A stretch of 64,000 nucleotides of DNA from contig JAHJTG010000016.1 of the NCBI GenBank assembly GCA_018829965.1, forward strand, positions 157,537-221,536, given 5' to 3'. Every line of letters starts with the position of its first letter. The stretch's first letter is position 1. The notes under the pieces were generated by a model that had not been told where the DNA came from, did no database searches, and was given only the letters and a program-made list of their open reading frames with translations. Positions 3,337 through 62,043 of the stretch are shown in pieces. Origin of the DNA: Patescibacteria group bacterium (GTDB lineage: Bacteria; Patescibacteriota; Minisyncoccia; Minisyncoccales; Staskawiczbacteraceae). Position numbers and translations under genes: made by a program.

Positions 3337-3959
3337 TATTTCTTTTTCAATATAATTTTTTTAATTATCGTAAAGATTGTCTGAAAAAATATTCCGGCGT
3401 CAATAAAAAGCGAATTATTCTTAGCATATTTCACTCTTAGTTTATTCTTTTGAGGTTCAATCTTTTCTCGGTACGACTTATCTACATTTTCTTCATCTAT
3501 AAAATCTTCTTGATTTATATAATATATACTAGCATAATCTGTCATTCCCGGACTAACATTGAGAATTATTTTTTCCTCTTCGGTGTAAAGATCTACATAA
3601 TATTTAACTTGTGGACGAGGCCCAACAAAACTCATCTCTCCATTCAAAACATTAATCAACTGAGGGAGCTCATCAAGTTTAGATCTTCTTAAAAACTTTC
3701 CTATCTTTGTTATCCGGGGATCATTACGAGAAGCGTGTATCGTTCCTATTTTTTCAGCATTCGGAACCATTGTCCTAAATTTATAAATTTTGAAAATTTT
3801 GCCAAACTTACCGACTCTTTCTCCTTTATAAAAAACAGGACCTTTAGAATCTAATTTAACCAATAACCTGATAACAATTAGGAGGGGCGATAATAATATC
3901 AATCCCAATAAAGCAAAGATAAAATCAAGAATTCTTTTCAATACTAATTGGAATTTCAT
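3336..3959 (-). CDS. Initiating phosphoglycosyl transferase (bacterial sugar transferase, small PglC-like type)
   Basis: 207 aa with one N-terminal hydrophobic helix. Motifs YKFRTM and DELPQLINVLNGEMSFVGPRP. TAATG stop/start overlap with the capD-like gene. Confidence 0.9.
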   Translation of the reverse strand: MKFQLVLKRILDFIFALLGLILLSPLLIVIRLLVKLDSKGPVFYKGERVGKFGKIFKIYKFRTMVPNAEKIGTIHASRNDPRITKIGKFLRRSKLDELPQLINVLNGEMSFVGPRPQVKYYVDLYTEEEKIILNVSPGMTDYASIYYINQEDFIDEENVDKSYREKIEPQKNKLRVKYAKNNSLFIDAGIFFQTIFTIIKKIILKKK

Positions 3960-6586
3960 CTTAGTTTTTCCTTAATTAATCTTTGATATTCTTTTATCAT
4001 CATTTCAAAAATCAATTTTTCGTCAAACTCATTAACTACCTTTATTCTACCCTTTTTCCCCATTTCTTTCCCCTTTTCTGAATTCTCGAGAAAATAAATT
4101 AAGGCTTCAGTAAGTTTTTCGGGATTTCTTGCTGGTACCAAAATTCCTGTTTTGCCATCGTCAACTGCCTCACGACAACCCCGAACATCAGTTGCAACCA
4201 CTGGTTTTTCCATTGCCGAAGCTTCTAATATAGATAAACCCATTCCTTCTCTATACGACGGCAAAACAAAAATATCTATTAGAGGAAAAATTTCATCAAT
4301 ATCAGCTCTTGCTCCTAAAAATATTGCATTTTTCTCTATCCTATATTTCTTAAAAATACTTGAATCTATTCCGTCTTTTTTTTCCGGCTCTTCTGGTCCA
4401 ACTACCAAAAGCACAGTATTTGGAAATTTATCAAGAATATTCTTAAATGCTTTAAAAAGGTCTAAATATCCTTTTTCTTTAACCATTCTTGCTACAATTC
4501 CGATAATTTTGCTGTCTGGGTTAATGCCAAACTGTTTTTTTTCCTTAATAATGAACTTTTCTGAAAACCTATGAGGATTAAATTTTTCCAAATTAACCCA
4601 TCCTCCTAAATATTTTATTTTCTCAAGAGAGCATATTTTTTCTCCTACTGCCGTTTCAATATCTTCTTTATTAACGGATAGAATCAAATCAGAACACATG
4701 GCTGCGGTCTTTTCCACTAAAATAAACAGATTCCTTTTTAACCATGGATCTTTTTTTTGAAAATAAAAGCCGTGATTTGTGTGAATAATGATGGGCACCC
4801 CCGCCATTTTAGCCGCTATCTGGCCAATGAATCCGGCTTTTGGAGTATGAGTGTGAACGATATCAAATTTTTCTTTCTTAAAATAAAAAAACAGCCTGAC
4901 AAGGCTAATTAAATCGGAAATAGGGCTGAAAAGCTTTCTTTTAAATTTTATTGTTTTCACTTTAATATTCCTTTTCTCAATATCATTAACTAATTTCCCG
5001 GGCGAACAAACGCTTGAAACCTCGTATCCTTCTTTCTGTAATAATTTTATCTGGCTTAAAATTATAAACTTAATTGAAGAAGCAATATTAGTCACCTGAC
5101 AAACTTTAATTCTTTTATCCAAACTTCTAGTTTTCTCTTGGGATCCTATAAAACCAACTGGAATCAAACATAAAAGAGATATGAATGCTGGCATTCTAAT
5201 CCTCATCACTTGTCCAAAATTAGTAAAATATAAAGCAGTCATGCCAAATACTCCCAAACTAAAAACAATCAAAGGGATAGCGATTCTGTTTCGTTTGACA
5301 GAAACTATAGCTCCTTTAACTATAAAAAAGAGAAGAATATACCAAGGAATTGTTTCAACTAAGGCAAAAAGTTGCCGAGCATACTTCATATGCCATGGAA
5401 GAGGACCCAATAAACTATAAATACAAGACTTTAAATAATTTAATACAGACTTTAATGGTTTATCAAACTCCGTCTTTATAACTATTGTAGAATCATTCCC
5501 GGAAGGTAATGGTTCGAGTGATGGTCCAAGCGATGACTCAGACGATGGTTCAGGCGATGACTCAGACGATGGTTCAGGCGATGACTCAGACGATGGTTCA
5601 GGCGATGACTCAGACGATGGTTCAAATGATGACTCAAGTAGAGACGGAGGAATAAAAGCTACTTCTCGATAAAAAGTAATAGTTTCCGGCTTAAGAAAAT
5701 GTTTGAAAAGATTTATGCTGTAATATCCATGTCCGGCGAAAACTTGGAAAAGGAATCCAAAAAGAACGATGGCAACAACACCGTTAAATACTCTTTTCCT
5801 TAAATTAACCTTTGATAAAATAAACCAACAAAAAATAAAGGTGAAAATTATGGCATAGCTAATATAAAAACGGGAGTTAGTCAAAAGTCCTAAAAATAAA
5901 TAAAACAAGGCGAATTTTTTCCAAGTGAAACTTTCGATGAGCCTTAATAAAAACAATAAGCTAATTAACGAAAATAATATTACAAAACAATCTTTTAACA
6001 ATAAACTCCCGTAAAAAAGATAACTAGGATAAACACTAACTATTAAACCAATTAAAAAAGCCCATTTTTTAGAACCGCCGATTTTCCGAACTATTAAATA
6101 AATGAAAATGATCGAAAGAGCGACCACCCAAGCATTAAATATTTGACCAATAAGCATCTCGGGTAAGGTAAGCGCATATACATAACCGATGGCTATTGTA
6201 TGGTAAAGATATATTGTCTCTGATGTCGGACCTCCTGATACGTCTACATTTTCTAAAGAAAAATTCCATTGATGAACCCTACGCGCTATTTCTACGGCTT
6301 GCGGCTGATACTTTAAATAATCGCCTACTCCACCACTAAACGGCTGAAAATGAGCATAATGAACAAATAAAACTGTTCCGAAATGCATTAAAATAACAAT
6401 TAAAAAAAGCCAGACTAATAATTTTCCGCCTATCTTAAATTTTCGAAGGATATATAAAACAATTAAGCAAAGAAAAATAAGGAAGATAGATCCTACTACC
6501 AAAACTTTATCAAAAAAAGCAACTATCCCTAAAATTAGGATCGCTGAAATAATAAAGATTATGATTTTTTTACTTTTTGGGTACAT
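3956..6586 (-). CDS. Fusion protein: polytopic membrane domain (GT-C/ArnT-PMT-like or polymerase-like, unassigned) plus C-terminal GT4 glycosyltransferase
   Basis: 876 aa. Residues 1 to ~490 are about 12 hydrophobic helices with a loop carrying (SSESSPEP)n. Residues ~500-876 carry GT-B/GT4 motifs (HTHTPKAGFIGQ, PSYREGMGLSILEASAMEKPVVATDVRGCREAVDDGKTGILV). Confidence 0.8.
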   Translation of the reverse strand: MYPKSKKIIIFIISAILILGIVAFFDKVLVVGSIFLIFLCLIVLYILRKFKIGGKLLVWLFLIVILMHFGTVLFVHYAHFQPFSGGVGDYLKYQPQAVEIARRVHQWNFSLENVDVSGGPTSETIYLYHTIAIGYVYALTLPEMLIGQIFNAWVVALSIIFIYLIVRKIGGSKKWAFLIGLIVSVYPSYLFYGSLLLKDCFVILFSLISLLFLLRLIESFTWKKFALFYLFLGLLTNSRFYISYAIIFTFIFCWFILSKVNLRKRVFNGVVAIVLFGFLFQVFAGHGYYSINLFKHFLKPETITFYREVAFIPPSLLESSFEPSSESSPEPSSESSPEPSSESSPEPSSESSLGPSLEPLPSGNDSTIVIKTEFDKPLKSVLNYLKSCIYSLLGPLPWHMKYARQLFALVETIPWYILLFFIVKGAIVSVKRNRIAIPLIVFSLGVFGMTALYFTNFGQVMRIRMPAFISLLCLIPVGFIGSQEKTRSLDKRIKVCQVTNIASSIKFIILSQIKLLQKEGYEVSSVCSPGKLVNDIEKRNIKVKTIKFKRKLFSPISDLISLVRLFFYFKKEKFDIVHTHTPKAGFIGQIAAKMAGVPIIIHTNHGFYFQKKDPWLKRNLFILVEKTAAMCSDLILSVNKEDIETAVGEKICSLEKIKYLGGWVNLEKFNPHRFSEKFIIKEKKQFGINPDSKIIGIVARMVKEKGYLDLFKAFKNILDKFPNTVLLVVGPEEPEKKDGIDSSIFKKYRIEKNAIFLGARADIDEIFPLIDIFVLPSYREGMGLSILEASAMEKPVVATDVRGCREAVDDGKTGILVPARNPEKLTEALIYFLENSEKGKEMGKKGRIKVVNEFDEKLIFEMMIKEYQRLIKEKLR
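5508..5640. repeat. In-frame 24-bp tandem repeat (VNTR-like) inside the membrane/GT4 fusion gene
   Basis: The unit gatgactcagacgatggttcaggc is perfect at 5532-5555, 5556-5579 and 5580-5603. A fourth copy at 5604-5627 has 3 mismatches, and degenerate copies flank the array. It encodes FEPSSESSPEPSSESSPEPSSESSPEPSSESSLGPSLEP. Confidence 0.9.
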
Positions 6587-9409: not shown

Positions 9410-10471
9410 TTAAAATTTAGATAAAACTTCTTTAATTTTGCCGAAAACTCGGTCGGGAGTTATCTTTTCTAAACAACTATGGACCCTTTCCCTATCATAA
9501 TTTTTATACGTATCAAGATTATAAGAATGCTCACAATTTTCTTTTAATATATATACATCTTCTCTATCAATCGGTGCTCCTCTTTTGGGGTCGGTGGGAC
9601 CGAATATTGAAACTAAATTAGTTTTTGTGGTTGAGGCAAGGTGATTGAGTCCGCTATCTGAAGAAACGAAAACTTTACATTTATTCATTAAAACAGCTAC
9701 TTGTTTTAATGAATATCCAGATATTACCATAGCATTCTTGTCTAACTCATTTTTTATTCCCAAACAGAGCTCTTCTTCTCCTCTCCCACCAAAAATCAAA
9801 ATAACTGCATTTGGAAAATTATATAATATCTTACGGCTTAATTCAATAAAATATTTTTGAGGCCATCTTTTGAATTTTTGATTCTCGCCGGAACCGGGAT
9901 GAAAACCAATTAAAATCTTATTGTTAAGACTATTTTTTATTAAAAAATTATCGGCAAATTCTTCATCTTTTGAGCTAACTTCTATAAACGGGGCAGGTAA
10001 AGGATAATCGATTCTCAAGCCAATAGCCCTTAATAGATCCATATCGCTTTCTGTCCTTTTTATATCTTGGCGCAAAAGAGAAGTGTGGGTATAGAACAAA
10101 CCGTTCTTACTTTTATTCTTTCTTTCTTCTCCCACCCTTACTTTCGCTCCGATAAAAAAACTTAAGATTTTTCCCTTTAATGGATGGAGGTCAGTTGGAG
10201 TAGTACTTAAATCATACTTTTCTTTTCTCAACCTATAAAGGAATTTTAATTTATTGAAAAAGCTATTCTTTGTCCAAGCAAACTCGAAAATTCTGTTGAC
10301 GGTTTCCCCTTCTTGCAGAACATGTCTTGACTCTGGTGTATATAAGACAAAAACATCTACCGTCGCCTTAGGGAAATTATTTCTTAAAATCCTTAAAACA
10401 GGGGTGAAGGCTATTAAATCCCCTATTCCAGCGGTATGAATTATTAAAATTTTCTTAAAGTTATAAACCAT
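9410..10471 (-). CDS. Glycosyltransferase family 9 (heptosyltransferase-like)
   Basis: ILIIHTAGIGDLIAFTPVLRILR and SSDSGLNHLAS are GT9 signatures. I placed the start at the internal Met (MVYNFKKIL, 10471). The track start at 10540 would overlap the upstream gene by 64 nt. Confidence 0.8.
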   Translation of the reverse strand: MVYNFKKILIIHTAGIGDLIAFTPVLRILRNNFPKATVDVFVLYTPESRHVLQEGETVNRIFEFAWTKNSFFNKLKFLYRLRKEKYDLSTTPTDLHPLKGKILSFFIGAKVRVGEERKNKSKNGLFYTHTSLLRQDIKRTESDMDLLRAIGLRIDYPLPAPFIEVSSKDEEFADNFLIKNSLNNKILIGFHPGSGENQKFKRWPQKYFIELSRKILYNFPNAVILIFGGRGEEELCLGIKNELDKNAMVISGYSLKQVAVLMNKCKVFVSSDSGLNHLASTTKTNLVSIFGPTDPKRGAPIDREDVYILKENCEHSYNLDTYKNYDRERVHSCLEKITPDRVFGKIKEVLSKF

Positions 10472-27547: not shown

Positions 27548-28378
27548 TTATCTTTTTGAGAATTTTTCGGGATCATCGATTCCTTGATCCTTCATTAGTT
27601 TATTATTAATCTCCTCCACTACTTTATGGATTTTTAAATCAACACCTTGTTCATCTGCAAATTGGATTAAAGCTTTAATGTCTTTCGGCAAACATTTCTT
27701 GCCGTATCCCCTATAGTCTCCGTAATAAATATTTAAATGACTAGGGCCTATTCTTTTATCCATTGAAGCGCATTCTCTCACTTCGTCGTAGTCAATGCCG
27801 ACTGCCTTGCATAAATCGTACATTTGATTGCCAAAAATAACTTTTGTTGAAAGAAATGTATTGCCGAAATATTTAACCATCTCTGCTTCAGTCGCCCTAA
27901 TAATCTTTTCAAAGGGAGCTTTCGGCAAAATAGACAAAACTTTTTCAGCTGATTCACGGCTGGAATCTGTATAGCCGACTATTTGTCTATCCGGGTTTTC
28001 CATACATTCATCCGCTTTTTCTTCAATTAAAAATTCTGGATTGAACAAAAACTTATGCTGAGGATATTTTTGCTGAAATTTTTCCGTAGTGCCAAGTAAA
28101 ACAGTTGATTTAATCACTATTGTTTTATTTCCGGAGATACTTGAACAAGCGTCTTCAACATAAGATAAATCAAATCCTTTTTCCTTATCAAATGGGGTCG
28201 GGACACAGATAAAAATAATATCGGCTTGGTTCACTTCTTCAGTAGAGCCCTTATTTTTTCCATTGTCGTAAAAAAATACCTTATATCCTACTTTATCAAA
28301 ATATCTTTTTAACGCTCCGCCAATCATTCCTAGACCCATTATTCCTATTTTTAAATCTTTTAAATTTTTGTTCTTCAT
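27548..28378 (-). CDS. UDP-glucose/GDP-mannose dehydrogenase-family protein, short form lacking the C-terminal UDP-binding domain
   Basis: 276 aa. IGIMGLGMIGGAL NAD-binding loop and the catalytic-Cys motif GKKCLPKDIKAL (compare GGxCxxKD). The protein ends about 30 aa after it. Confidence 0.65.
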   Translation of the reverse strand: MKNKNLKDLKIGIMGLGMIGGALKRYFDKVGYKVFFYDNGKNKGSTEEVNQADIIFICVPTPFDKEKGFDLSYVEDACSSISGNKTIVIKSTVLLGTTEKFQQKYPQHKFLFNPEFLIEEKADECMENPDRQIVGYTDSSRESAEKVLSILPKAPFEKIIRATEAEMVKYFGNTFLSTKVIFGNQMYDLCKAVGIDYDEVRECASMDKRIGPSHLNIYYGDYRGYGKKCLPKDIKALIQFADEQGVDLKIHKVVEEINNKLMKDQGIDDPEKFSKR

Positions 28379-28458
28379 AATTATGAGCGAGGGAGGAAAG
28401 GAAAAACCTTTTTTACTTTCCGACCAAGCGATTAATTATATAGACTAAAAGTCTCTAT
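28379..28458 (-). promoter_or_regulatory. Conserved leader element, copy A (abuts ATG of 27548-28378)
   Basis: Gene-sense sequence: ATAGAGACTTTTAGTCTATATAATTAATCGCTTGGTCGGAAAGTAAAAAAGGTTTTTCCTTTCCTCCCTCGCTCATAATT, then ATG. Hairpin 1 pairs 28442-28446 with 28450-28454. Hairpin 2 pairs 28395-28400 with 28416-28421, plus an inner A/T stem. TATATAAT lies at 28435-28442. Confidence 0.75.
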
Positions 28459-31823: not shown

Positions 31824-32936
31824 TTAAGCTCCTATAATTTTTAATAAAGAATCGCAAACAAAATTAACATCTTTTTTAGTTAGATTTGATGCCGAAGAAA
31901 GACAAATACCTCTTTTTTCCACTTTTCCTGCTTCAGGATTATTAAATCTTCTTTCTTGCTCAAAAACCGGAAATAAGCTCATTCTTGGAAATCCTGACCT
32001 GCAATGAATATTAAGATCTTTCAGTTGTTTTAATACCTCGTCTCGCGGAACTGAGATACTGTCTTCTAAAAGAATGGACGAATAGCAATAATTGCTTTTA
32101 CAATTTTCTTTCTCCTTTATAATCTTTATTCCCTTTACACTTTGAAGTCTCTCGTAATACCAATCAAACATCTGTCTCTTCTTTGCAACCAATTCATCAA
32201 TTCTTTCAACTTGAGCCAGAGCAAGCGCCGCTGTCAAGTTTGCTATCGTATACTGATACCCTATTTGATCTGACCAAAAAACTGCTTTAGAATCAGTGCG
32301 ACCCATTGTCGCAAACAACAGCGCTTTCTTATAAAGCTCTTCATTATCTGTTACGAGAATACCTCCTTCTCCACTTACAGTAATTTTTGCGCCCTGAAAA
32401 CTAAAACATCCGAAGTCGCCGAAAGTGCCAACTTTTTGGCCTTTAAATCTAGAGCCGAGGGCTGGAGCAGCGTCTTCAATCACCCGTAAATTATACTCTT
32501 TTGCAATCTCCATAATTTCATCCATCTGAGCAGGATGACCATAAGAATGAACGAGCATAATGGCTTTTGTTTTGTCGGTAATAGCCTTTCTTATTGCTTT
32601 TGGATCAATACACCAGGAATCTGGATCTATATCAACAAAAACAGGAGTTGCTCCGCTGTAAGCAATCGCATAACCAGTAGCAATCCAGCTAAAATCAGTA
32701 CAAATTACTTCGTCTCCTTTTTTCAGCCCTAATGCCATTACTGCCAGATGTAAAGCCATCGTACAACAATGGGTGGCAATCGCATATTTAACGCCTAAAT
32801 ACTCCGGAACTTTCTGTTCAAGCTTTTTTGCGTGCTTATCATAGGTCTCATACCAGCCGTTTTTAACAGCATCCATTACATAATCGATTTCCTTTTGAGT
32901 AATACAGGGACCGGCAAAGCTTATTTTCTTATTCAT
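31824..32936 (-). CDS. DegT/DnrJ/EryC1/StrS-family NDP-sugar aminotransferase
   Basis: 370 aa. FGDFGCFSFQGAKITVSGEGG (active-site Lys) and overall DegT architecture. Confidence 0.85.
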   Translation of the reverse strand: MNKKISFAGPCITQKEIDYVMDAVKNGWYETYDKHAKKLEQKVPEYLGVKYAIATHCCTMALHLAVMALGLKKGDEVICTDFSWIATGYAIAYSGATPVFVDIDPDSWCIDPKAIRKAITDKTKAIMLVHSYGHPAQMDEIMEIAKEYNLRVIEDAAPALGSRFKGQKVGTFGDFGCFSFQGAKITVSGEGGILVTDNEELYKKALLFATMGRTDSKAVFWSDQIGYQYTIANLTAALALAQVERIDELVAKKRQMFDWYYERLQSVKGIKIIKEKENCKSNYCYSSILLEDSISVPRDEVLKQLKDLNIHCRSGFPRMSLFPVFEQERRFNNPEAGKVEKRGICLSSASNLTKKDVNFVCDSLLKIIGA

Positions 32937-33017
32937 AATTATGAGCGAGGAAGATATGAAAATTTATTTTCATATCGACCGAGTGATTAATTATATAAAT
33001 TACGAAGTAATTTCTAT
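32937..33017 (-). promoter_or_regulatory. Conserved leader element, copy B (abuts ATG of 31824-32936; overlaps stop codon of 33014-34174)
   Basis: Gene-sense sequence: ATAGAAATTACTTCGTAATTTATATAATTAATCACTCGGTCGATATGAAAATAAATTTTCATATCTTCCTCGCTCATAATT, then ATG. Hairpin 1 pairs 32997-33003 with 33007-33013. Hairpin 2 pairs 32953-32962 with 32967-32976. TATATAAT lies at 32990-32997. Confidence 0.75.
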
Positions 33018-45790: not shown

Positions 45791-47101
45791 TTATTTTAAA
45801 AGGGAACTACTTTGCTCTTGATATTCAGTTTTCCAACTTAATCGTGGTTGAACGACCCCCATTAAAATCTTCCTGTTATGTTCTTTGTGCATGTTTTTTT
45901 TATCAATAATTTCAAAAGATAAAATCTGGTCTTCATATACATGAGCAAAAGAATCAATAACTCCCGCTAGATTTCCTATGATTATATTAATAAAATAATG
46001 CCCCTCTTTCAGCAAATCGCCTGGTATTCGGCATACACAACGGAACAGACCTTCTGGACAAGGACGGTCATACCAGTGATCAATCTCCGAACAAACTGAA
46101 GGAAGATTGGTCGCCGATAAAACATAAACGCCCTCATTATTAACCAAACGGATACACGGCAATAGCTTTGCTCCTTTCAGAAAATTCCAATAAGTTAATT
46201 CAATATAAAAATCTTCGCTTACCTCTAACTTAGAAGCTGGTCTTTTTTCTTTTGAGAGAACGCGCACGCTTTTAAGCTTTACGTATGGGTCCCCCGGCGC
46301 CTCAATAGGGTTTTCCCAATTGATTTCTGGTCCTATTCCTTTTCTTAAACCGGTATATTTTTCAATGACATCTGGTGTAGGACCTTCCATTATTAATCTG
46401 CCTTTTTCTAAAAGAATTGACCGATTGCAAAGCCTTGCCACGCTGTCCATATTATGAGAGACAAACAATATTGTTCTTCCCTCTTGGCTAACCTTGCTCA
46501 TTTTTTCCAAACATTTCTTTTGAAACTTGAAATCGCCAACTGCTAAAACTTCGTCTACAAATAAAACCTCGGGTTCAAGATGGGCCGCTACTGCAAACGC
46601 TAATTTAACATACATGCCACTTGAATATCTTTTGACGGGAGTATCTAAAAACTCTCCGATTTCCGAAAATTTCACAATTTCGTCAAATTTTGAATCAATT
46701 TCTTTTTTTGTCATTCCTAAAATTGCGCCGCTAAGATAGATATTCTCTCTGCCCTTCAATTCCGGATGAAAGCCAGTCCCTACTTCCAATAAACTATTTA
46801 TACGACCCCGAATTATGGCCCGGCCTTCAGTGGGAGGAGTAATTTTAGACAGCACTTTCAAAAGGGTAGTTTTACCAGCGCCATTTCTACCAATAACTCC
46901 TATTACTTCACCTTTCTTTACTGAAAAACTGACATCTTTTAACGCCCAAAAATCTTTTTTACTTGTCTTTTCCCCCTTCAACCATTGGATTGGTTTTTTT
47001 GCCAATTTAATCATCTCCTCTCTTAATGAATAATATCTTTCCTTCTCTTCCCCTATTTTATAGTTCTTTGATAAATTGTGAACTTCTATAATTTTTTCCA
47101 T
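45791..47101 (-). CDS. wzt: Polysaccharide ABC exporter ATP-binding protein with C-terminal beta-sandwich (Wzt_C-like) domain
   Basis: 436 aa. Walker A GRNGAGKTTLLK, signature YSSGMYVKLAFAVA, Walker B LFVDEVLAVGD. An extra ~180 aa follows the NBD. Confidence 0.9.
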   Translation of the reverse strand: MEKIIEVHNLSKNYKIGEEKERYYSLREEMIKLAKKPIQWLKGEKTSKKDFWALKDVSFSVKKGEVIGVIGRNGAGKTTLLKVLSKITPPTEGRAIIRGRINSLLEVGTGFHPELKGRENIYLSGAILGMTKKEIDSKFDEIVKFSEIGEFLDTPVKRYSSGMYVKLAFAVAAHLEPEVLFVDEVLAVGDFKFQKKCLEKMSKVSQEGRTILFVSHNMDSVARLCNRSILLEKGRLIMEGPTPDVIEKYTGLRKGIGPEINWENPIEAPGDPYVKLKSVRVLSKEKRPASKLEVSEDFYIELTYWNFLKGAKLLPCIRLVNNEGVYVLSATNLPSVCSEIDHWYDRPCPEGLFRCVCRIPGDLLKEGHYFINIIIGNLAGVIDSFAHVYEDQILSFEIIDKKNMHKEHNRKILMGVVQPRLSWKTEYQEQSSSLLK

Positions 47102-47186
47102 AATTATAAACGAGGGAGGAATGAAAAAATTTGTTTTTGCATTCCGACCGAGTGATTGATTATATAAATGGCTTTGTCATTTCTAT
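47102..47186 (-). promoter_or_regulatory. Conserved leader element, copy C (abuts ATG of wzt)
   Basis: Gene-sense sequence: ATAGAAATGACAAAGCCATTTATATAATCAATCACTCGGTCGGAATGCAAAAACAAATTTTTTCATTCCTCCCTCGTTTATAATT, then ATG. Hairpin 1 pairs 47166-47170 with 47178-47182. Hairpin 2 pairs 47118-47123 with 47140-47145, plus an inner A/T stem. TATATAAT lies at 47159-47166. Confidence 0.75.
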
Positions 47187-58335: not shown

Positions 58336-58351
58336 TTTTTAAAAAACAAAG

Positions 58352-58600
58352 CTACCATTTTTTGATAGCTTCTTTAGTTTTATTTCTTACTTTTTTATAA
58401 ACATTAAGGACTCTTGTTTCAAAGGTAGGAGAAATCAGATTCAGAATTTCATCGCCCCAAATCCTATATTGACCGCTTACTTTATAAGCTTTAATAATGC
58501 CGTTCCTTATCATTCTTTTCATCGTGCTCTCGCTGACTTTTAGAAAATCACGAGCTTCCTTTGGCGTATATATTTTTTCTGGTTTGATTTCTTCTGGCAT
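58352..58600 (-). CDS. Small helix-turn-helix DNA-binding protein (excisionase/MerR-type HTH_17-like)
   Basis: 82 aa. YTPKEARDFLKVSESTMKRMIRNGIIKAYKVSGQYRIWGDEI. Lies 16 nt upstream of the dehydratase gene. Confidence 0.7.
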   Translation of the reverse strand: MPEEIKPEKIYTPKEARDFLKVSESTMKRMIRNGIIKAYKVSGQYRIWGDEILNLISPTFETRVLNVYKKVRNKTKEAIKKW

Positions 58601-58641
58601 ACAATAACATTAAACCCCTCTCGACGTAGTGTCAAGAGGGG
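58601..58641 (-). terminator. Putative intrinsic terminator after 58666-59232
   Basis: In gene sense, the CCCCTCT/AGAGGGG stem (58635-58641 pairs with 58615-58621) has a 13-nt loop that contains GAC/GTC pairing. It is followed by TTTAATGTTATTGT running into the HTH start codon. Confidence 0.5.
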
Positions 58642-58665
58642 TCAAAAGGTATCAATTGCCTATTA

Positions 58666-59232
58666 CTAGATTCTATTGAATGCGATGTTTTTTTCCCTTA
58701 TTTTAAATCTCTTTTTAATCCAGACTCCTATTAATTCATAGCTCCCGAAAAAGACGGTCGCGTAAAATAAATTTCCCAATAATGTATTTCTGAAAAATGG
58801 CAGAGCCATAAAATAACACTGGATTATTCCAGAAATAGTTTTGGCATACCAAGGGGAAAAAGCCCAAACTGCAAAATTAGTGATAAGGAAAAATAGAACA
58901 GCGGATAAAATCGCGCTCCCCCCTACTGTATACCACTTCTTATGTCCCTTTAACCAGAAACCAAGAATAACGTATAAAAGAAAGCTACCATAAACTGCAA
59001 TCATTAATTTCGGGTCATAATAGCCGATAAATAGATCGCTGATTGCCATTACTGCTAACGGCAGAAATAATGCTATCTTTCTTGAGAAATAGACTCCTCC
59101 AAATAAAGCAATGACGGCTATGGGGGTGAAATTAGGAGCATGGGGAATAAGCCTCAAGCTGACTCCGATTATAATAAAAACTAAAGCAATAGTGAAATTT
59201 AATGTTTTCCCTTTTTCAGTTAATTTTGACAT
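58666..59232 (-). CDS. Polytopic membrane protein (ECF S-component-like/DUF6580-like putative vitamin transporter)
   Basis: 188 aa with 5-6 hydrophobic helices. The RLIPHAPNFTPIAVIALFGG motif is one I associate with a putative-transporter family. The assignment is tentative. Confidence 0.5.
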   Translation of the reverse strand: MSKLTEKGKTLNFTIALVFIIIGVSLRLIPHAPNFTPIAVIALFGGVYFSRKIALFLPLAVMAISDLFIGYYDPKLMIAVYGSFLLYVILGFWLKGHKKWYTVGGSAILSAVLFFLITNFAVWAFSPWYAKTISGIIQCYFMALPFFRNTLLGNLFYATVFFGSYELIGVWIKKRFKIREKNIAFNRI

Positions 59233-59261: not shown

Positions 59262-60404
59262 TTAAAAGGTTGATTTTTCAAATTTAAACTCTACTTTGTC
59301 CCCAGATTTTATAATCATTTTATCCGCGGAAATCATAGGCATTTCTCCATTAATGTAATATAGCCAATATTTTCCATCCTGTCCATTTTCTTTATCCCCA
59401 ATTGCTTCAATAAATATTCCAATATCATAATTCTTTGTTTTAAGCGCTAAGTATAATTTTTTAGCCTCCTCCTCTAATAAATCAAAAGCGGTCATTCCTT
59501 CTTTAAATTCGGCAACAGAGGTCTTTGGATTCTCTTCCCCATAATCAATTACCAATACTGCTTCTTTCCCTACTGTTTCCAGGGCAACATTATTTTCTTT
59601 AACGTTAGCCTGCCAAAAATCACTAGAAAGTATCAACCAACTGCCAATAATAACAATTATTACCGCTCCAATTATGATGTAAATAAATTTCTTATTAACA
59701 AAATTTCTATTAATAATTTTTTTCTTAATAAAATATAAAATCGCTAATAATAAGATTATCAAAATTACCAATATGACTGTTAACCATATATCGTTCAAGA
59801 TATTCATCATTCCTGTCAATAAACCAGCTTGGGCTATAATCTCATAATTAATTTGATTGGACGTAGATTCTTCTTGCTCCTCTTGTTGTAAAATTGTTTC
59901 TTGCTCTTGCTGTTCAACATCCTGTTGAATATCTTTAGGTACAATTATATTAACAGCAGTTATGTTATATGCACCACCTTCTACATTAAAAGGAATATCT
60001 GTGCCCGCCCCTATAACATTAACATCTGTTAAAAATAATTTTCCTTGACCGGCTTGAACTCCTTCAGCAGACACCGAAAGAATATTTTGAACAGCAACTA
60101 CGCACTTTGGAATCCCTAAAACAAAACTGGGGCTAGCGCAAGTTGGAGTAATCATGGCCATAACACCACTATCTGTAATAATATTTTGGCAAGATAAATT
60201 ATCAAAGTTTAAAGTACCTTTTACAACACAAATATCGTTATTTACCGAATCTATTTGGATAGAAATGCTAAAAACGCTACCAGCTGTGCTATTAAGCGAT
60301 GCTGGTAAAACAGACAATGTTGAGCTATCTGCATAAACCATTTGGCTCATTCCAAATATTACTACGATAGTTAATAATACTAATAAAGTTATTTTTTTCA
60401 TCAT
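59262..60404 (-). CDS. Surface protein: signal peptide, cohesin-like beta-sandwich, Q/E-rich linker, two TM helices, C-terminal DUF4430 (transcobalamin-like beta domain)
   Basis: 380 aa. MMKKITLLVLLTIVVIFGMSQMVYA; LSVLPASLNSTAGSVFSISIQIDSVNNDICVVKGTLNFDNL (cohesin-like); QQDVEQQEQETILQQEEQEE. C-terminal AFDLLEE...IGIFIEAIGDKENGQDGKYWLYYINGEMPMISADKMIIKSGDKVEFKF is DUF4430-like. Confidence 0.6.
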   Translation of the reverse strand: MMKKITLLVLLTIVVIFGMSQMVYADSSTLSVLPASLNSTAGSVFSISIQIDSVNNDICVVKGTLNFDNLSCQNIITDSGVMAMITPTCASPSFVLGIPKCVVAVQNILSVSAEGVQAGQGKLFLTDVNVIGAGTDIPFNVEGGAYNITAVNIIVPKDIQQDVEQQEQETILQQEEQEESTSNQINYEIIAQAGLLTGMMNILNDIWLTVILVILIILLLAILYFIKKKIINRNFVNKKFIYIIIGAVIIVIIGSWLILSSDFWQANVKENNVALETVGKEAVLVIDYGEENPKTSVAEFKEGMTAFDLLEEEAKKLYLALKTKNYDIGIFIEAIGDKENGQDGKYWLYYINGEMPMISADKMIIKSGDKVEFKFEKSTF

Positions 60405-60405
60405 A

Positions 60406-60438
60406 ATTTTATTTACATTTTATTTACATTTTATTTAC
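60406..60438. repeat. Perfect 11-bp x3 tandem repeat filling the intergenic gap
   Basis: attttatttac at 60406-60416, 60417-60427 and 60428-60438. The third copy contains the stop codon (60435-60437) of the upstream gene. The first copy ends 1 nt from the ATG at 60404. Confidence 0.85.
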
Positions 60439-61739
60439 TTATCCCAATTAAACATCAAAAGGGCAAAATCGTATTCGTTAATTGCGCCGTCGTGATTTAA
60501 ATCAGCCAAACCTAAACCAGGTTGGCCCCAATCTTCTCTTAATACGGCGAAATCATATTCGTTAATAATATTATCGCTATTTATATCGCCGCTTTTTTTA
60601 GCTGACTGCGGAGGATCAACAGCAAAACTAACTGAAATGGTGTGGTCAGCATCAATATTATTAAAAGTATAACTAGTTACTGTGCCGACCGAAACGCCAT
60701 CTACTAAAACATCCTCAACGTGGTAACCGGTGTCCGGACTAATAGTGAAAGCTTCGTCTGAAGTAGCGCCAACCCTCACCATTCCCGAAAAGAAAATTAA
60801 GCCATGCTCACTAGCAGACGCATTAATAACATACATTCTTACTCCGCCACCACTGCTATCTATTGAGACAGAATATTTGCCTACTGGATAAAACTTTTGA
60901 GACAAAGCAATCACCGCGTAAGCAGTCGAACTTGGAAAAGGCCAATACTTTTCAAAAGAACCGTCGGATATTTGTAAGGACTTCAAATTATCAATAGGAT
61001 TTTTACCATTTTTTGACCAATCAGAGGGATTTTGACCTAATTTATAAATAGCCGAAATAACCCAAGCATCGGAAGAAGCATTTGAATCAGTCCCCCAAGG
61101 ACTTACAGGGTCATAAGGAAACCCGCCATCAGAGTTTTGGCATGATTTTAAATAATCAACAGCTTTTATAATTACTGGGTCGCTTGATGAAGTTCCAGAT
61201 TCCAATAAAGCCATAATAGCTGCTGCTGTATCGTCAACATCACTACCCCACCCAATACCAAAAGGAAATCCGCCATCAGGATTTTGGTTTGTCAAAATAA
61301 AATTTTTAGAATCCTGAATAATTTGACTGCTTGAATCTTCACCGGCTGAAACCAAAGCTAAAATTCCCCAAAAATCATCGTTTAAATAATTCGTAGAACC
61401 AATCTGATTATTTTGATAAAAACTCTCCAACTGGCTAACAAAATCAATATCGCCAAAAGTTCTTGGATTCTCGCCGGCAGCAGTAATAGCTAAAATTATT
61501 TTTTCGTAATCAGTGGCTGAGCTACCACTAAGAGTTTTTAGATAATTTAGGTCCGTATCTGTTTTTCCACCCGCGATTAAACCCATAGTTATCCAAGGGT
61601 CGGAAGATTGAAGCTCAAGATAATTAATAGCTTTATCAATTTCTGATTGATTTTCTGCTTGAACTTCAGAAAAAGCGGTGAATCCGATTAAACCGACTGA
61701 AATTGCGACTAAAGAAACGACTAAAATTATTTTTTTCAT
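60435..61739 (-). CDS. Secreted alpha/alpha-toroid (prenyltransferase/squalene-oxidase repeat) protein with beta-repeat domain and C-terminal dockerin-like repeats
   Basis: QNPDGGFPFG, QNSDGGFPYD and QISDGSFEKY (QW-type repeats). C-terminal GDINSDNIINEYDFAVL...ADLNHDGAINEYDFALL (two dockerin-like Ca-binding repeats). Start set at MKKIILVVSLVAISVG (61739); the 13 extra codons in the track (to 61778) lie inside leader copy D. Confidence 0.7.
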   Translation of the reverse strand: MKKIILVVSLVAISVGLIGFTAFSEVQAENQSEIDKAINYLELQSSDPWITMGLIAGGKTDTDLNYLKTLSGSSATDYEKIILAITAAGENPRTFGDIDFVSQLESFYQNNQIGSTNYLNDDFWGILALVSAGEDSSSQIIQDSKNFILTNQNPDGGFPFGIGWGSDVDDTAAAIMALLESGTSSSDPVIIKAVDYLKSCQNSDGGFPYDPVSPWGTDSNASSDAWVISAIYKLGQNPSDWSKNGKNPIDNLKSLQISDGSFEKYWPFPSSTAYAVIALSQKFYPVGKYSVSIDSSGGGVRMYVINASASEHGLIFFSGMVRVGATSDEAFTISPDTGYHVEDVLVDGVSVGTVTSYTFNNIDADHTISVSFAVDPPQSAKKSGDINSDNIINEYDFAVLREDWGQPGLGLADLNHDGAINEYDFALLMFNWDK

Positions 61740-61821
61740 AATTACGAATGAGGGAAGAAAATGATAATTTATTATCATTTTCCGACCGAATAAAGTGATT
61801 ATATAGGTTCGTAACCTCTAT
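61740..61821 (-). promoter_or_regulatory. Conserved leader element, copy D (abuts ATG at 61739)
   Basis: Gene-sense sequence: ATAGAGGTTACGAACCTATATAATCACTTTATTCGGTCGGAAAATGATAATAAATTATCATTTTCTTCCCTCATTCGTAATT, then ATG. Hairpin 1 pairs 61805-61809 with 61813-61817. Hairpin 2 pairs 61757-61767 with 61772-61782. TATATAAT lies at 61798-61805. Confidence 0.75.
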
Positions 61822-61822
61822 T

Positions 61823-61844
61823 AAAAAATCCCCTTCGAGGGGGA
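61823..61844 (-). terminator. Putative intrinsic terminator
   Basis: In gene sense, TCCCC-CTCGAA-GGGGA (61844-61829) is followed by TTTTTT (61828-61823). Confidence 0.55.
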
Positions 61845-62005
61845 AAAATTCATCTAATCCAAAGATTAGATTGACCTTTTTCTTTGCTCGAAGAAATTAA
61901 AGTTAATTATATGGTATTCTGGCTTAGGAATTCTTTTAAAAATTCCGTTACAGTTGCGGCACAGCCCCGGATTTGAACCGGTGTTTCCCATTTATTTTAA
62001 AACGC
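61823..62005 (-). other. Candidate stand-alone small transcription unit: structured sRNA or 41-aa ORF (61866-61991)
   Basis: Bounded by a TTGACA-18 nt-TAGTAT promoter-like site and the terminator at 61823-61844. Three further hairpins lie at 61961-61986, 61927-61946 and 61853-61870. The ORF reads MGNTGSNPGLCRNCNGIFKRIPKPEYHIINFNFFEQRKRSI. Confidence 0.3.
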
Positions 62006-62013
62006 TTTTATAT

Positions 62014-62043
62014 ATACTATCTTTTTCTCAGCAAGGTTGTCAA
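62014..62043 (-). promoter_or_regulatory. Putative sigma70-type promoter (TTGACA, 18-nt spacer, TAGTAT)
   Basis: In gene sense, TTGACA lies at 62043-62038 and TAGTAT at 62019-62014. No experimental support. Confidence 0.3.

Follow-up and report, generated by a model that had tools for sequence, protein, structure and literature searches.

Short conserved sequences between bacterial genes are known in several forms, and the element described here resembles more than one of them. ERIC of Yersinia, Correia/NEMIS of Neisseria, and BOX and RUP of pneumococcus are, like our element, about 100 nt long, dispersed and insertion-polymorphic; they lie between co-transcribed genes, as the element probably does, and can fold into RNA hairpins. 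For these families, orientation-dependent effects on the adjacent mRNAs have been proposed to arise through ribosome-induced refolding (PMC2229807). In translational sequestor/anti-sequestor leaders (for example SAM-III/SMK box and further translational riboswitches, or the fourU and ROSE thermometers), a conserved helix occludes the initiation region and an upstream strand can release it, an arrangement that the element may share. The putative mobile promoters (Matus-Garcia et al. 2012, PMC3488235) are similar regions of 50–100 nt found before non-homologous genes, with similarity extending both within and between genomes, as is the case here. Finally, JUMPStart/ops–RfaH, LoaP, EAR and put RNAs are comparable in that the element is also a conserved leader within a long glycan array.

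The element departs from each of these systems. Unlike ERIC and Correia, it has neither terminal inverted repeats nor a consistent TA duplication, occurs almost only in one orientation, keeps an exact start-codon register and invariant internal-loop bases, and is under strong per-locus purifying selection in a host of the CPR lacking the anti-Shine-Dalgarno (anti-SD) sequence. Unlike the sequestor leaders, it would occlude the start codon and not the Shine-Dalgarno (SD) sequence, is mobile and patchy, and serves no common metabolic theme, although its conserved internal loops could likewise serve a ligand or a protein. It differs from the mobile promoters in that its −10-like box lies in covarying helices, it has no −35, and its copies are only about 63–75% identical overall because the stems vary. 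In contrast to the JUMPStart, LoaP, EAR and put systems, it lacks ops, matches no Rfam family, occurs in many copies per operon and mostly precedes non-glycan genes.

The window, by which we mean the whole 64,000-nt stretch analysed here (positions 157,537 to 221,536 of contig JAHJTG010000016.1, from a Patescibacteria group bacterium), carries 56 co-directional genes, all on the minus strand and with a median spacing of 2 nt. We found in it four copies of an element of ~85 nt, all on the minus strand, each spanning ATAGAR to the ATG with which it ends. Copy A (28376–28458; 85.4 bits) lies 5′ of a UDP-glucose dehydrogenase-family gene and copy B (32934–33017; 90.7 bits) 5′ of a DegT-family aminotransferase gene; in copy B the UAG within AUAGAA is the stop codon of the preceding gene. 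Copy C (47099–47186; 85.2 bits) runs from ATAGAA to the ATG of a Wzt ABC-transporter ATPase gene and occupies the spacer (97 nt) that separates this Wzt-type ATPase gene from a Wzm-type ABC-2 permease gene. Copy D (61737–61821; 72.1 bits) precedes the gene for a prenyltransferase-fold plus dockerin protein and sits directly 3′ of a riboswitch terminator. The downstream genes are unrelated to one another, three of the four copies being placed 5′ of glycan genes, and among the truly non-coding gaps of the window, the three internal spacers that contain an element (97, 84 and 77 nt) rank as the largest. The pattern TATAAT-N6-13-YGGTCG-N15-45-CCTC-N5-TAATTATG matched four times in the window, always on the minus strand, and not once in 100 shuffles. 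The TATATAAT box alone is not significant in the window (17 matches against 10.5 expected in DNA of 33% G+C), and outside the four copies YGGTCG has only two gene-strand occurrences in the window, both within coding sequence.

A first-pass annotation of this DNA had described a conserved leader directly abutting the ATG, and we observed the same arrangement at all four genes. The TATAAT box stands at a set distance from the start codon, as claimed, the hexamer ending 53–58 nt before each ATG. The spacing given for ATAGAR was also borne out: its end is separated from the TATAAT hexamer by 12 nt in the 28-kb and 61-kb copies and by 16 nt in the 33-kb and 47-kb copies. The pyrimidine tracts are those originally described, namely TCCTCCCTCG (28 kb and 47 kb), TTCCTCG (33 kb) and TTCCCTCA (61 kb). 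None of the four copies was flagged as a two-hexamer sigma-70 site in a promoter scan, in agreement with the claim that no −35 is conserved. For copy D, the ORF lister places the start of the gene at 61778, which lies inside hairpin P2 (see below) and in frame with the gene; judging from the conserved register of the element, the true start is 61739. Annotators should be aware that ORF callers can mis-start genes inside the element.

We describe the fold of the element in the minus-strand coordinates of copy C. Hairpin P1 (47162–47186; AUAGAAAUG/CAUUUAUAU, with a G·A mismatch) pairs AUAGAR with YUAUAU across a variable hairpin, has a conserved G·A that is U-A in 8 copies, and covaries in both its upper and its lower stem. 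Its 3′ arm takes in the first five bases of TATATAAT, a box (47159–47166) common to this arm and to the 5′ arm of helix P0 (47157–47164; UAUAAUCA). The latter pairs with 47099–47106 (UAAUUAUG), which consists of the last five leader bases and the start codon (47099–47101). Stated for the family, the box remainder TATAATTA(N) pairs with (N)TAATTATG, start codon included, so that P0 closes a long irregular hairpin (UAUAAUUA against UAAUUAUG). Above P0 come a 2-bp RY/RY helix, UC/UC and UC/UY internal loops flanking GG/CC, and then the variable hairpin P2; both conserved pyrimidine internal loops are 2×2, around the GG/CC step. The conserved 5′ strand (47145–47153; ACUCGGUCG) is accordingly composed of the 2-bp RY helix, two UC loops with the GG step between them, and the first G of P2. 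P2 itself (47118–47145), the hairpin 2 of the earlier reading, shows strong covariation across copies. The pyrimidine strand (47110–47120; UCCUCCCUCGU) contains the 'anti-SD-like' tract opposite the GGUCGG block, in line with that reading, which had CCUCC partly pairing with this block across hairpin 2.

In an alignment of 33 copies, 88.9% of cells are paired, compared with 47–50% when the partners are slid by 1–3 columns. Double-change cells numbered 118 against 37.6 in shuffles, and none of 500 shuffles reached the observed score. Pairs 49/92 and 50/91 (alignment columns) covary, while the GG/CC pairs are invariant. The P0 core was forced by the search pattern, and variation in P0 was therefore read from unforced positions and from copies found by the covariance model: pair 43/96 is mostly A-U, with G-C in 5 copies and U-A in 2, and pair 44/95 is either C-G or U-A. 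The five core pairs of P0 are invariant in most copies, and its covariation amounts to 2–3 subfamily-level events. In three loci (L008, L021 and L012), the lower part of P1, where bases of the TATAAT box are paired, forms a perfect helix with another sequence. Covariation thus supports P1, P2, the 2-bp helix and P0, and the element has the covarying conserved structure by which riboswitches and other cis-regulatory leaders are recognised. Because both P1 and P0 covary, TATATAAT is base-paired on both sides. Using G·U pairs as a strand test, we counted 25 of them, not above the 33 A·C mismatches; wobble pairs are therefore uninformative on whether it is the sense RNA that folds. Two other uses of these hairpins were considered and rejected. 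A conserved upstream ORF in P2 fails, as the AUG present in some P2 stems is missing from many and its frame is not conserved; P1 does not resemble an intrinsic terminator, its stems being AU-rich without a U-run, whereas the real terminators here are GC-rich with U6–7.

The absence of a canonical SD at the element-bearing genes was a further point of the first-pass annotation. An SD is indeed absent there, and SD pairing was correctly called impossible; the lack is not peculiar to these genes, as almost none of the 56 genes of the window has an SD. The complete 16S rRNA gene of locus L027 (715–2187, minus strand) has the 3′ end GGAUCAUUUUUUUAAAAA, without CCUCC, two relatives (L110 and L111, Staskawiczbacteria like L027) have the same 3′ end, and the ending GGAUCAUUUUUUU of a related 16S rRNA has no CCUCC. 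Loss of the anti-SD has been reported for some Parcubacteria (PMC9297842). SD-like 4-mers precede 15 of 186 ORFs in element-bearing DNA, a rate equal to that of a control window, and SD-like words are not enriched across 80 ribosomal protein operons of relatives (59 of 1037). Use of an SD was seen in none of the loci examined, and by these counts the missing SD is lineage-wide. With a 16S rRNA lacking CCUCC and no enrichment of SD, the CCUCC tract of the element therefore has no ribosomal partner of the canonical type. All 80 of these operons are SD-less, yet just four have the element; the lineage can therefore translate without it, and we rejected the idea that it serves as the general SD substitute. 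Intron-bearing rRNA is known in the CPR, and consistent with that we noted LAGLIDADG homing-endonuclease ORFs in or beside rRNA genes of relatives (L111, 13146–13598; L113, 14488–15231).

Next, we determined the extent of the family. The pattern derived from the four window copies, scanned against one genome per species, gave 28 loci. All come from metagenome-assembled genomes of Patescibacteria, here a group of tiny bacteria from groundwater: some are Staskawiczbacteria, others are in bins that bear the label "Saccharibacteria" or are unclassified. One assembly gives up to six pattern matches. A covariance model built from 33 copies added 7 in the same loci, 4 in metagenome loci and 1 in an ortholog locus, so that the Patescibacteria copies total 45 (33 pattern matches and 12 model matches). 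All but one of them (44/45) are co-oriented with the downstream gene, and 36 of the 45 end exactly in ...UAAUUAUG; in the other nine, AUG lies 3–42 nt past P0 or is absent. The downstream genes include those of ribosomal proteins (rplB, rpsC and rplV, each twice, and rplC, rpsS, rplM, rplO and rplE), tuf, groEL, atpA, atpD, atpF, a hibernation factor, pth, a release factor, pheT, a pilin-like protein, epimerases and small membrane proteins. One ribosomal protein operon has copies 5′ of tuf, rpsS, rplV and rpsC within 8 kb; the last three are consecutive cistrons in the S10 operon, with a copy before each. We observed no coherent single-ligand regulon among these genes, which range from ribosomal proteins through glycan enzymes to B12-related surface proteins.

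Searches of the window and of 15 element-bearing loci against Rfam 15 returned no family at the gathering threshold for the element, the only matches being Cobalamin and tRNA, and in permissive searches of the window and two single copies the best sub-threshold matches had E ≥ 0.17. By these searches, the element matches none of the described RNA families (Rfam 15), and the searchable literature yielded no description of it. A phage origin was rejected, since viral contigs gave no match. Subfamilies are genome-specific (a GC-rich P2, for example, occurs only in JAHIOM01), and nested or tandem partial copies are present in L070, L015 and L016. In L070 (12380–12700, 5′ of rplE), the core UCGGUCG...CCUCC forms a threefold nest, one P2 loop within the next; before it stand three tandem repeats, each of 60 nt, with another motif, TAGCGAATCAAGGTTC-hairpin-GGTTCTTAT, which is also found in L026 and, on the other strand, in L010. 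In several relatives rpsC has a different conserved leader, which is short and contains a small hairpin (GAATTTAGAATTTCTTTTAACGAATTAAAAGTT-ATG); it lies just 5′ of this gene in L037, L038 and L040 (~9960–10000), and in L038 the element is found upstream of this leader, 42 nt from the rpsC ATG.

Comparison with relatives revealed how copies come to lie at their sites. The relatives of L027 were obtained via EF-Ts homologs (80–88% identity), and 68 kb of their DNA contained no copy; a further 70 kb from other close relatives contained none except the orthologous copy in L114. Upstream of the 16S rRNA gene, three relatives are uninterrupted, and L027 has a 72-nt insert, antisense to the rRNA, with a 9-bp direct repeat. 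Because the site is empty in three close relatives, the L027 copy is a lineage-specific insertion, and we discarded the notion that it makes an antisense RNA from the pre-16S leader. Before the release-factor gene, the relatives read ...TTTTTGAAT|ATG, and L027 has the element exactly between GAAT and ATG. At the Wzm/Wzt junction, four relatives (73–79% Wzt identity) have A-rich spacers of 11–22 nt and no element; in the window and its closest relative (83%), the element was inserted directly before the Wzt ATG, the old spacer being kept upstream. The orthologous copy in L114 is identical to the window copy at 71 of 85 positions (84%). In the flanking genes, by comparison, 61–64% of third codon positions and 88% of first codon positions are identical. 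This excess over third positions argues for selection at the locus and against junk DNA. From these alignments, we concluded that new copies arise by insertion just 5′ of start codons and that purifying selection then maintains them. Dispersed repeats are defined by two features, many copies per genome and insertions that are polymorphic among close relatives, and both were found. The insertions left no target-site duplication of constant length: the 9-bp repeat at the 16S site has no consistent counterpart at the release-factor and Wzt sites, and duplication of TA or AT was rejected, since TA fits the former of these two sites and AT the latter, and neither fits both. Terminal inverted repeats of the MITE type are also absent, the arms of P0 being inverted repeats with the conserved P1 outside them.

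The surroundings of the copies bear on how they are transcribed. They sit between tightly packed co-directional genes without a terminator, and in 27 of 40 the start is no more than about 20 nt from the stop codon of a co-directional gene upstream. Promoter-like sites, in several cases of the form TTGACA-N17-TAnnnT, lie just 5′ of P1 at tuf (L006), L024, L026, L021 and L027, where no co-directional gene is upstream, and a riboswitch or short terminator abuts AAUAGAR at copy D, L015 and L016. These neighbours, the proximity to stop codons and the copies on consecutive cistrons argue that the element is transcribed from upstream. Copy D is a clear example. It belongs to a separate three-gene B12-related operon outside the glycan array, and on the minus strand (61823–62043) it follows a promoter (TTGACA-N18-TAGTAT, 62014–62043), a cobalamin riboswitch (61892–62033; RF00174, 39 bits against a threshold of 31.5 bits) and an intrinsic terminator (61823–61842; CCCCUCGAAGGGG and a U-run). 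The operon encodes the prenyltransferase/squalene-cyclase-fold plus dockerin protein (60435–61739), a DUF4430 protein (59262–60404) and a DUF6580 protein (58666–59232), and ends at a strong hairpin (58613–58643); its make-up suggests that this CPR genome uses it for B12 capture or uptake.

Taken together, we favour the view, to which we assign a probability of about one half, that the element is a transcribed, dispersed, structured leader of ~85 nt that gates the start codon, and that it forms a family in a subset of Patescibacteria without the anti-SD. Of the four bases, only U can pair with A as well as with G, and the UAU of the box can pair either with the AUA of AUAGAR or with AUG. From this we infer the gate: with UAU paired to AUA, the AUG would be free, and with UAU paired to AUG, the start codon would be sequestered. 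Such a sequestor/anti-sequestor pair could control translation initiation in a lineage barred from SD pairing. The conserved internal-loop module would be the likely docking site for a putative trans factor, and the element may in part act by processing or stabilising the cistron downstream. In constrained folding of 35 copies, the two conformers were near-isoenergetic (mean difference −0.4 kcal/mol, sd 2.3), a result that is suggestive only, because AU-rich sequence yields alternatives easily. The same ease of alternative pairing counts against gating, as do the mostly invariant core of P0 and the placement of a perfect −10 where a promoter would have it. The lack of a G·U excess, the 76 SD-less ribosomal protein operons that do without the element and the nine copies whose AUG is displaced or missing weigh on the same side. 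A more ambitious version, which we consider distinctly unlikely, holds that the element defines a new class of translational riboregulator specific to bacteria without the anti-SD: a mobile switch embracing the start codon, in which AUA competes with AUG and the loop module binds a global factor or the 30S subunit (possibly GGUCG with h26), with a regulon of highly expressed genes. A covariation-supported RNA structure that physically contains the start codon has been inserted repeatedly, before genes for ribosomal proteins, EF-Tu, GroEL, ATP synthase and surface glycans, and has then come under selection, and it offers a concrete handle on SD-independent control of expression in CPR bacteria.

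The main rival is a portable promoter and leader, which we regard as possible, if doubtful. TATAAT would act as a −35-independent −10 with a start at the conserved purine 5–6 nt downstream, the RY/GG/P2 hairpin would be a 5′-terminal stabiliser, UCAUAAUUAUG an open initiation region, and the cassette would spread as a 'mobile promoter', in keeping with the known reuse of upstream regions before unrelated genes (PMC3488235). The first-pass annotation had likewise proposed a promoter plus 5′UTR, and its −10-like box and conserved leader are real. ATATAAT is invariant in 33 of 33 pattern copies (the pattern forced six of the seven bases, including the perfect TATAAT), and the box remains −10-like in diverged copies, most of which have TAnnnT-like versions. 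A purine stands at the expected +1, exactly at the base of the inner hairpin; copies are enriched 5′ of highly expressed genes (tuf, groEL, atp and ribosomal protein genes); and some follow terminators (L005, L015, L016 and copy D). However, the covarying P1 and P0 need bases upstream of such a start site, as the partners of the first TATATAAT bases lie upstream of any start that TATAAT could direct. The clear promoters of this lineage have TTGACA with a 17–18 nt spacer (5′ of the riboswitch, the small HTH gene, tuf, a tRNA, L015, L016 and L024), but the element has no −35 hexamer at a 16–18 nt spacer and no TG extension, the bases before TATAAT being YTA. At tuf, L024, L026 and the release-factor gene a canonical promoter already stands immediately 5′ of the element, three copies follow in succession in the S10 operon, and the B12 riboswitch would be defeated by a constitutive start placed between its terminator and the genes that it precedes. 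This evidence weakens the promoter reading, and annotators should be warned that a perfect TATAAT here is probably RNA structure and not a promoter. Cleavage or exonuclease blocking at the hairpin could instead uncouple the level of the downstream cistron from that of the upstream one, an effect described for ERIC and Correia repeats. The long imperfect hairpin, of about 30 stacked layers, does lie between co-directional, probably co-transcribed genes, and before cistrons usually needed in excess (groEL after groES, tuf, atpA and atpD), and orientation-dependent RNase E/RNase III effects of co-transcribed repeats are documented (PMC2229807). Yet invariant internal-loop bases and a fixed AUG register exceed the needs of a nuclease site or a protective hairpin; as a separate explanation we judge such an intercistronic processing or stability element unlikely, and it is compatible with the start-codon gate rather than exclusive of it.

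That the element is a selfish miniature mobile element without host function, its hairpins serving mobility at the DNA level, we consider improbable. The patchy spread, with one copy, the L114 ortholog, in 68 kb and 70 kb of relatives' DNA, the insertion polymorphism at three sites (one with the 9-bp direct repeat), the nested or tandem copies, the genome-specific subfamilies and the lack of a G·U excess over A·C all fit it. It is opposed by the 44 of 45 copies that lie in sense orientation directly before a gene, 36 in exact ATG register, and by the want of a consistent target duplication and of terminal inverted repeats spanning the unit, since P1 lies outside P0. In addition, stems differ within one genome, yet orthologous copies are 84% identical against 61–64% at silent sites, which indicates that each locus is under selection. 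Tethering of the 30S subunit in the manner of TURBS, with GGUCG pairing to CGACC in the h26 loop of 16S rRNA in place of an SD, appears very improbable. The loop in L027, L110 and L111 (UGUCGACC) does hold the exact complement of GGUCG, and h26 is unusually conserved in Parcubacteria (PMC9297842), but chance alone would place any given 5-mer in a 16S rRNA about 1.5 times, both G's of GGUCG are paired with CC within the element, and the loop is identical in element-free relatives. Moreover, 76 of the 80 SD-less ribosomal protein operons do without the element, and YGGTCG is confined on the window gene strand to the four copies and the two coding occurrences. Hardly credible is the proposal, also made in the first-pass annotation, of a loading site for processive antitermination of the long glycan array, either by a NusG paralog or by RNA of the put/EAR kind. 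In its favour, the leader is conserved and structured and lies in a long array of co-directional genes, with three of the four window copies before glycan genes; it finds no support in the other copies, most of which precede unrelated housekeeping genes, several per operon. The ops motif GGCGGTAG has no match on either strand of the window, the element matches neither JUMPStart (RF01707) nor EAR nor any other Rfam family, and relatives run the same glycan operons without it. None of 26 proteins scanned from the window and L027 is NusG-like, and the earlier statement that the window has no NusG-like gene agrees with this for the window proteins among them.

A few minor features of these loci are also worth recording. 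In L015 (~2440–2590) and L016 (~1560–1715), 5′ of orthologous small-protein genes in two genomes, TTGACA-N17-TAACAT is followed after ~10 nt by a 6-bp hairpin with U6, which may be a very small attenuator, and then by tandem half-copies of the element (P1 and the TATAAT box). At the head of the glycan array (58600–58640, minus strand), a GC-rich hairpin is overlapped by TTGACA-N17-TAATGT, the end of which is 6 nt from the ATG of a small HTH (excisionase-like) ORF, whose mRNA is a candidate leaderless transcript; a terminator-like hairpin (58348–58372) lies between this ORF and the next gene. The ORF after copy A (27548–28378; 276 aa, UDP-glucose/GDP-mannose dehydrogenase family) shows a match to the central domain and to a portion of the N-terminal one but none to a C-terminal domain, and may be split or truncated. 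Lastly, the 876-aa ORF at 3956–6586 contains nine in-register 12-nt tandem repeats (5496–5639; GATGGTTCAGGCGATGACTCAGAC and variants), which encode an acidic Asp/Gly/Ser-rich tract.
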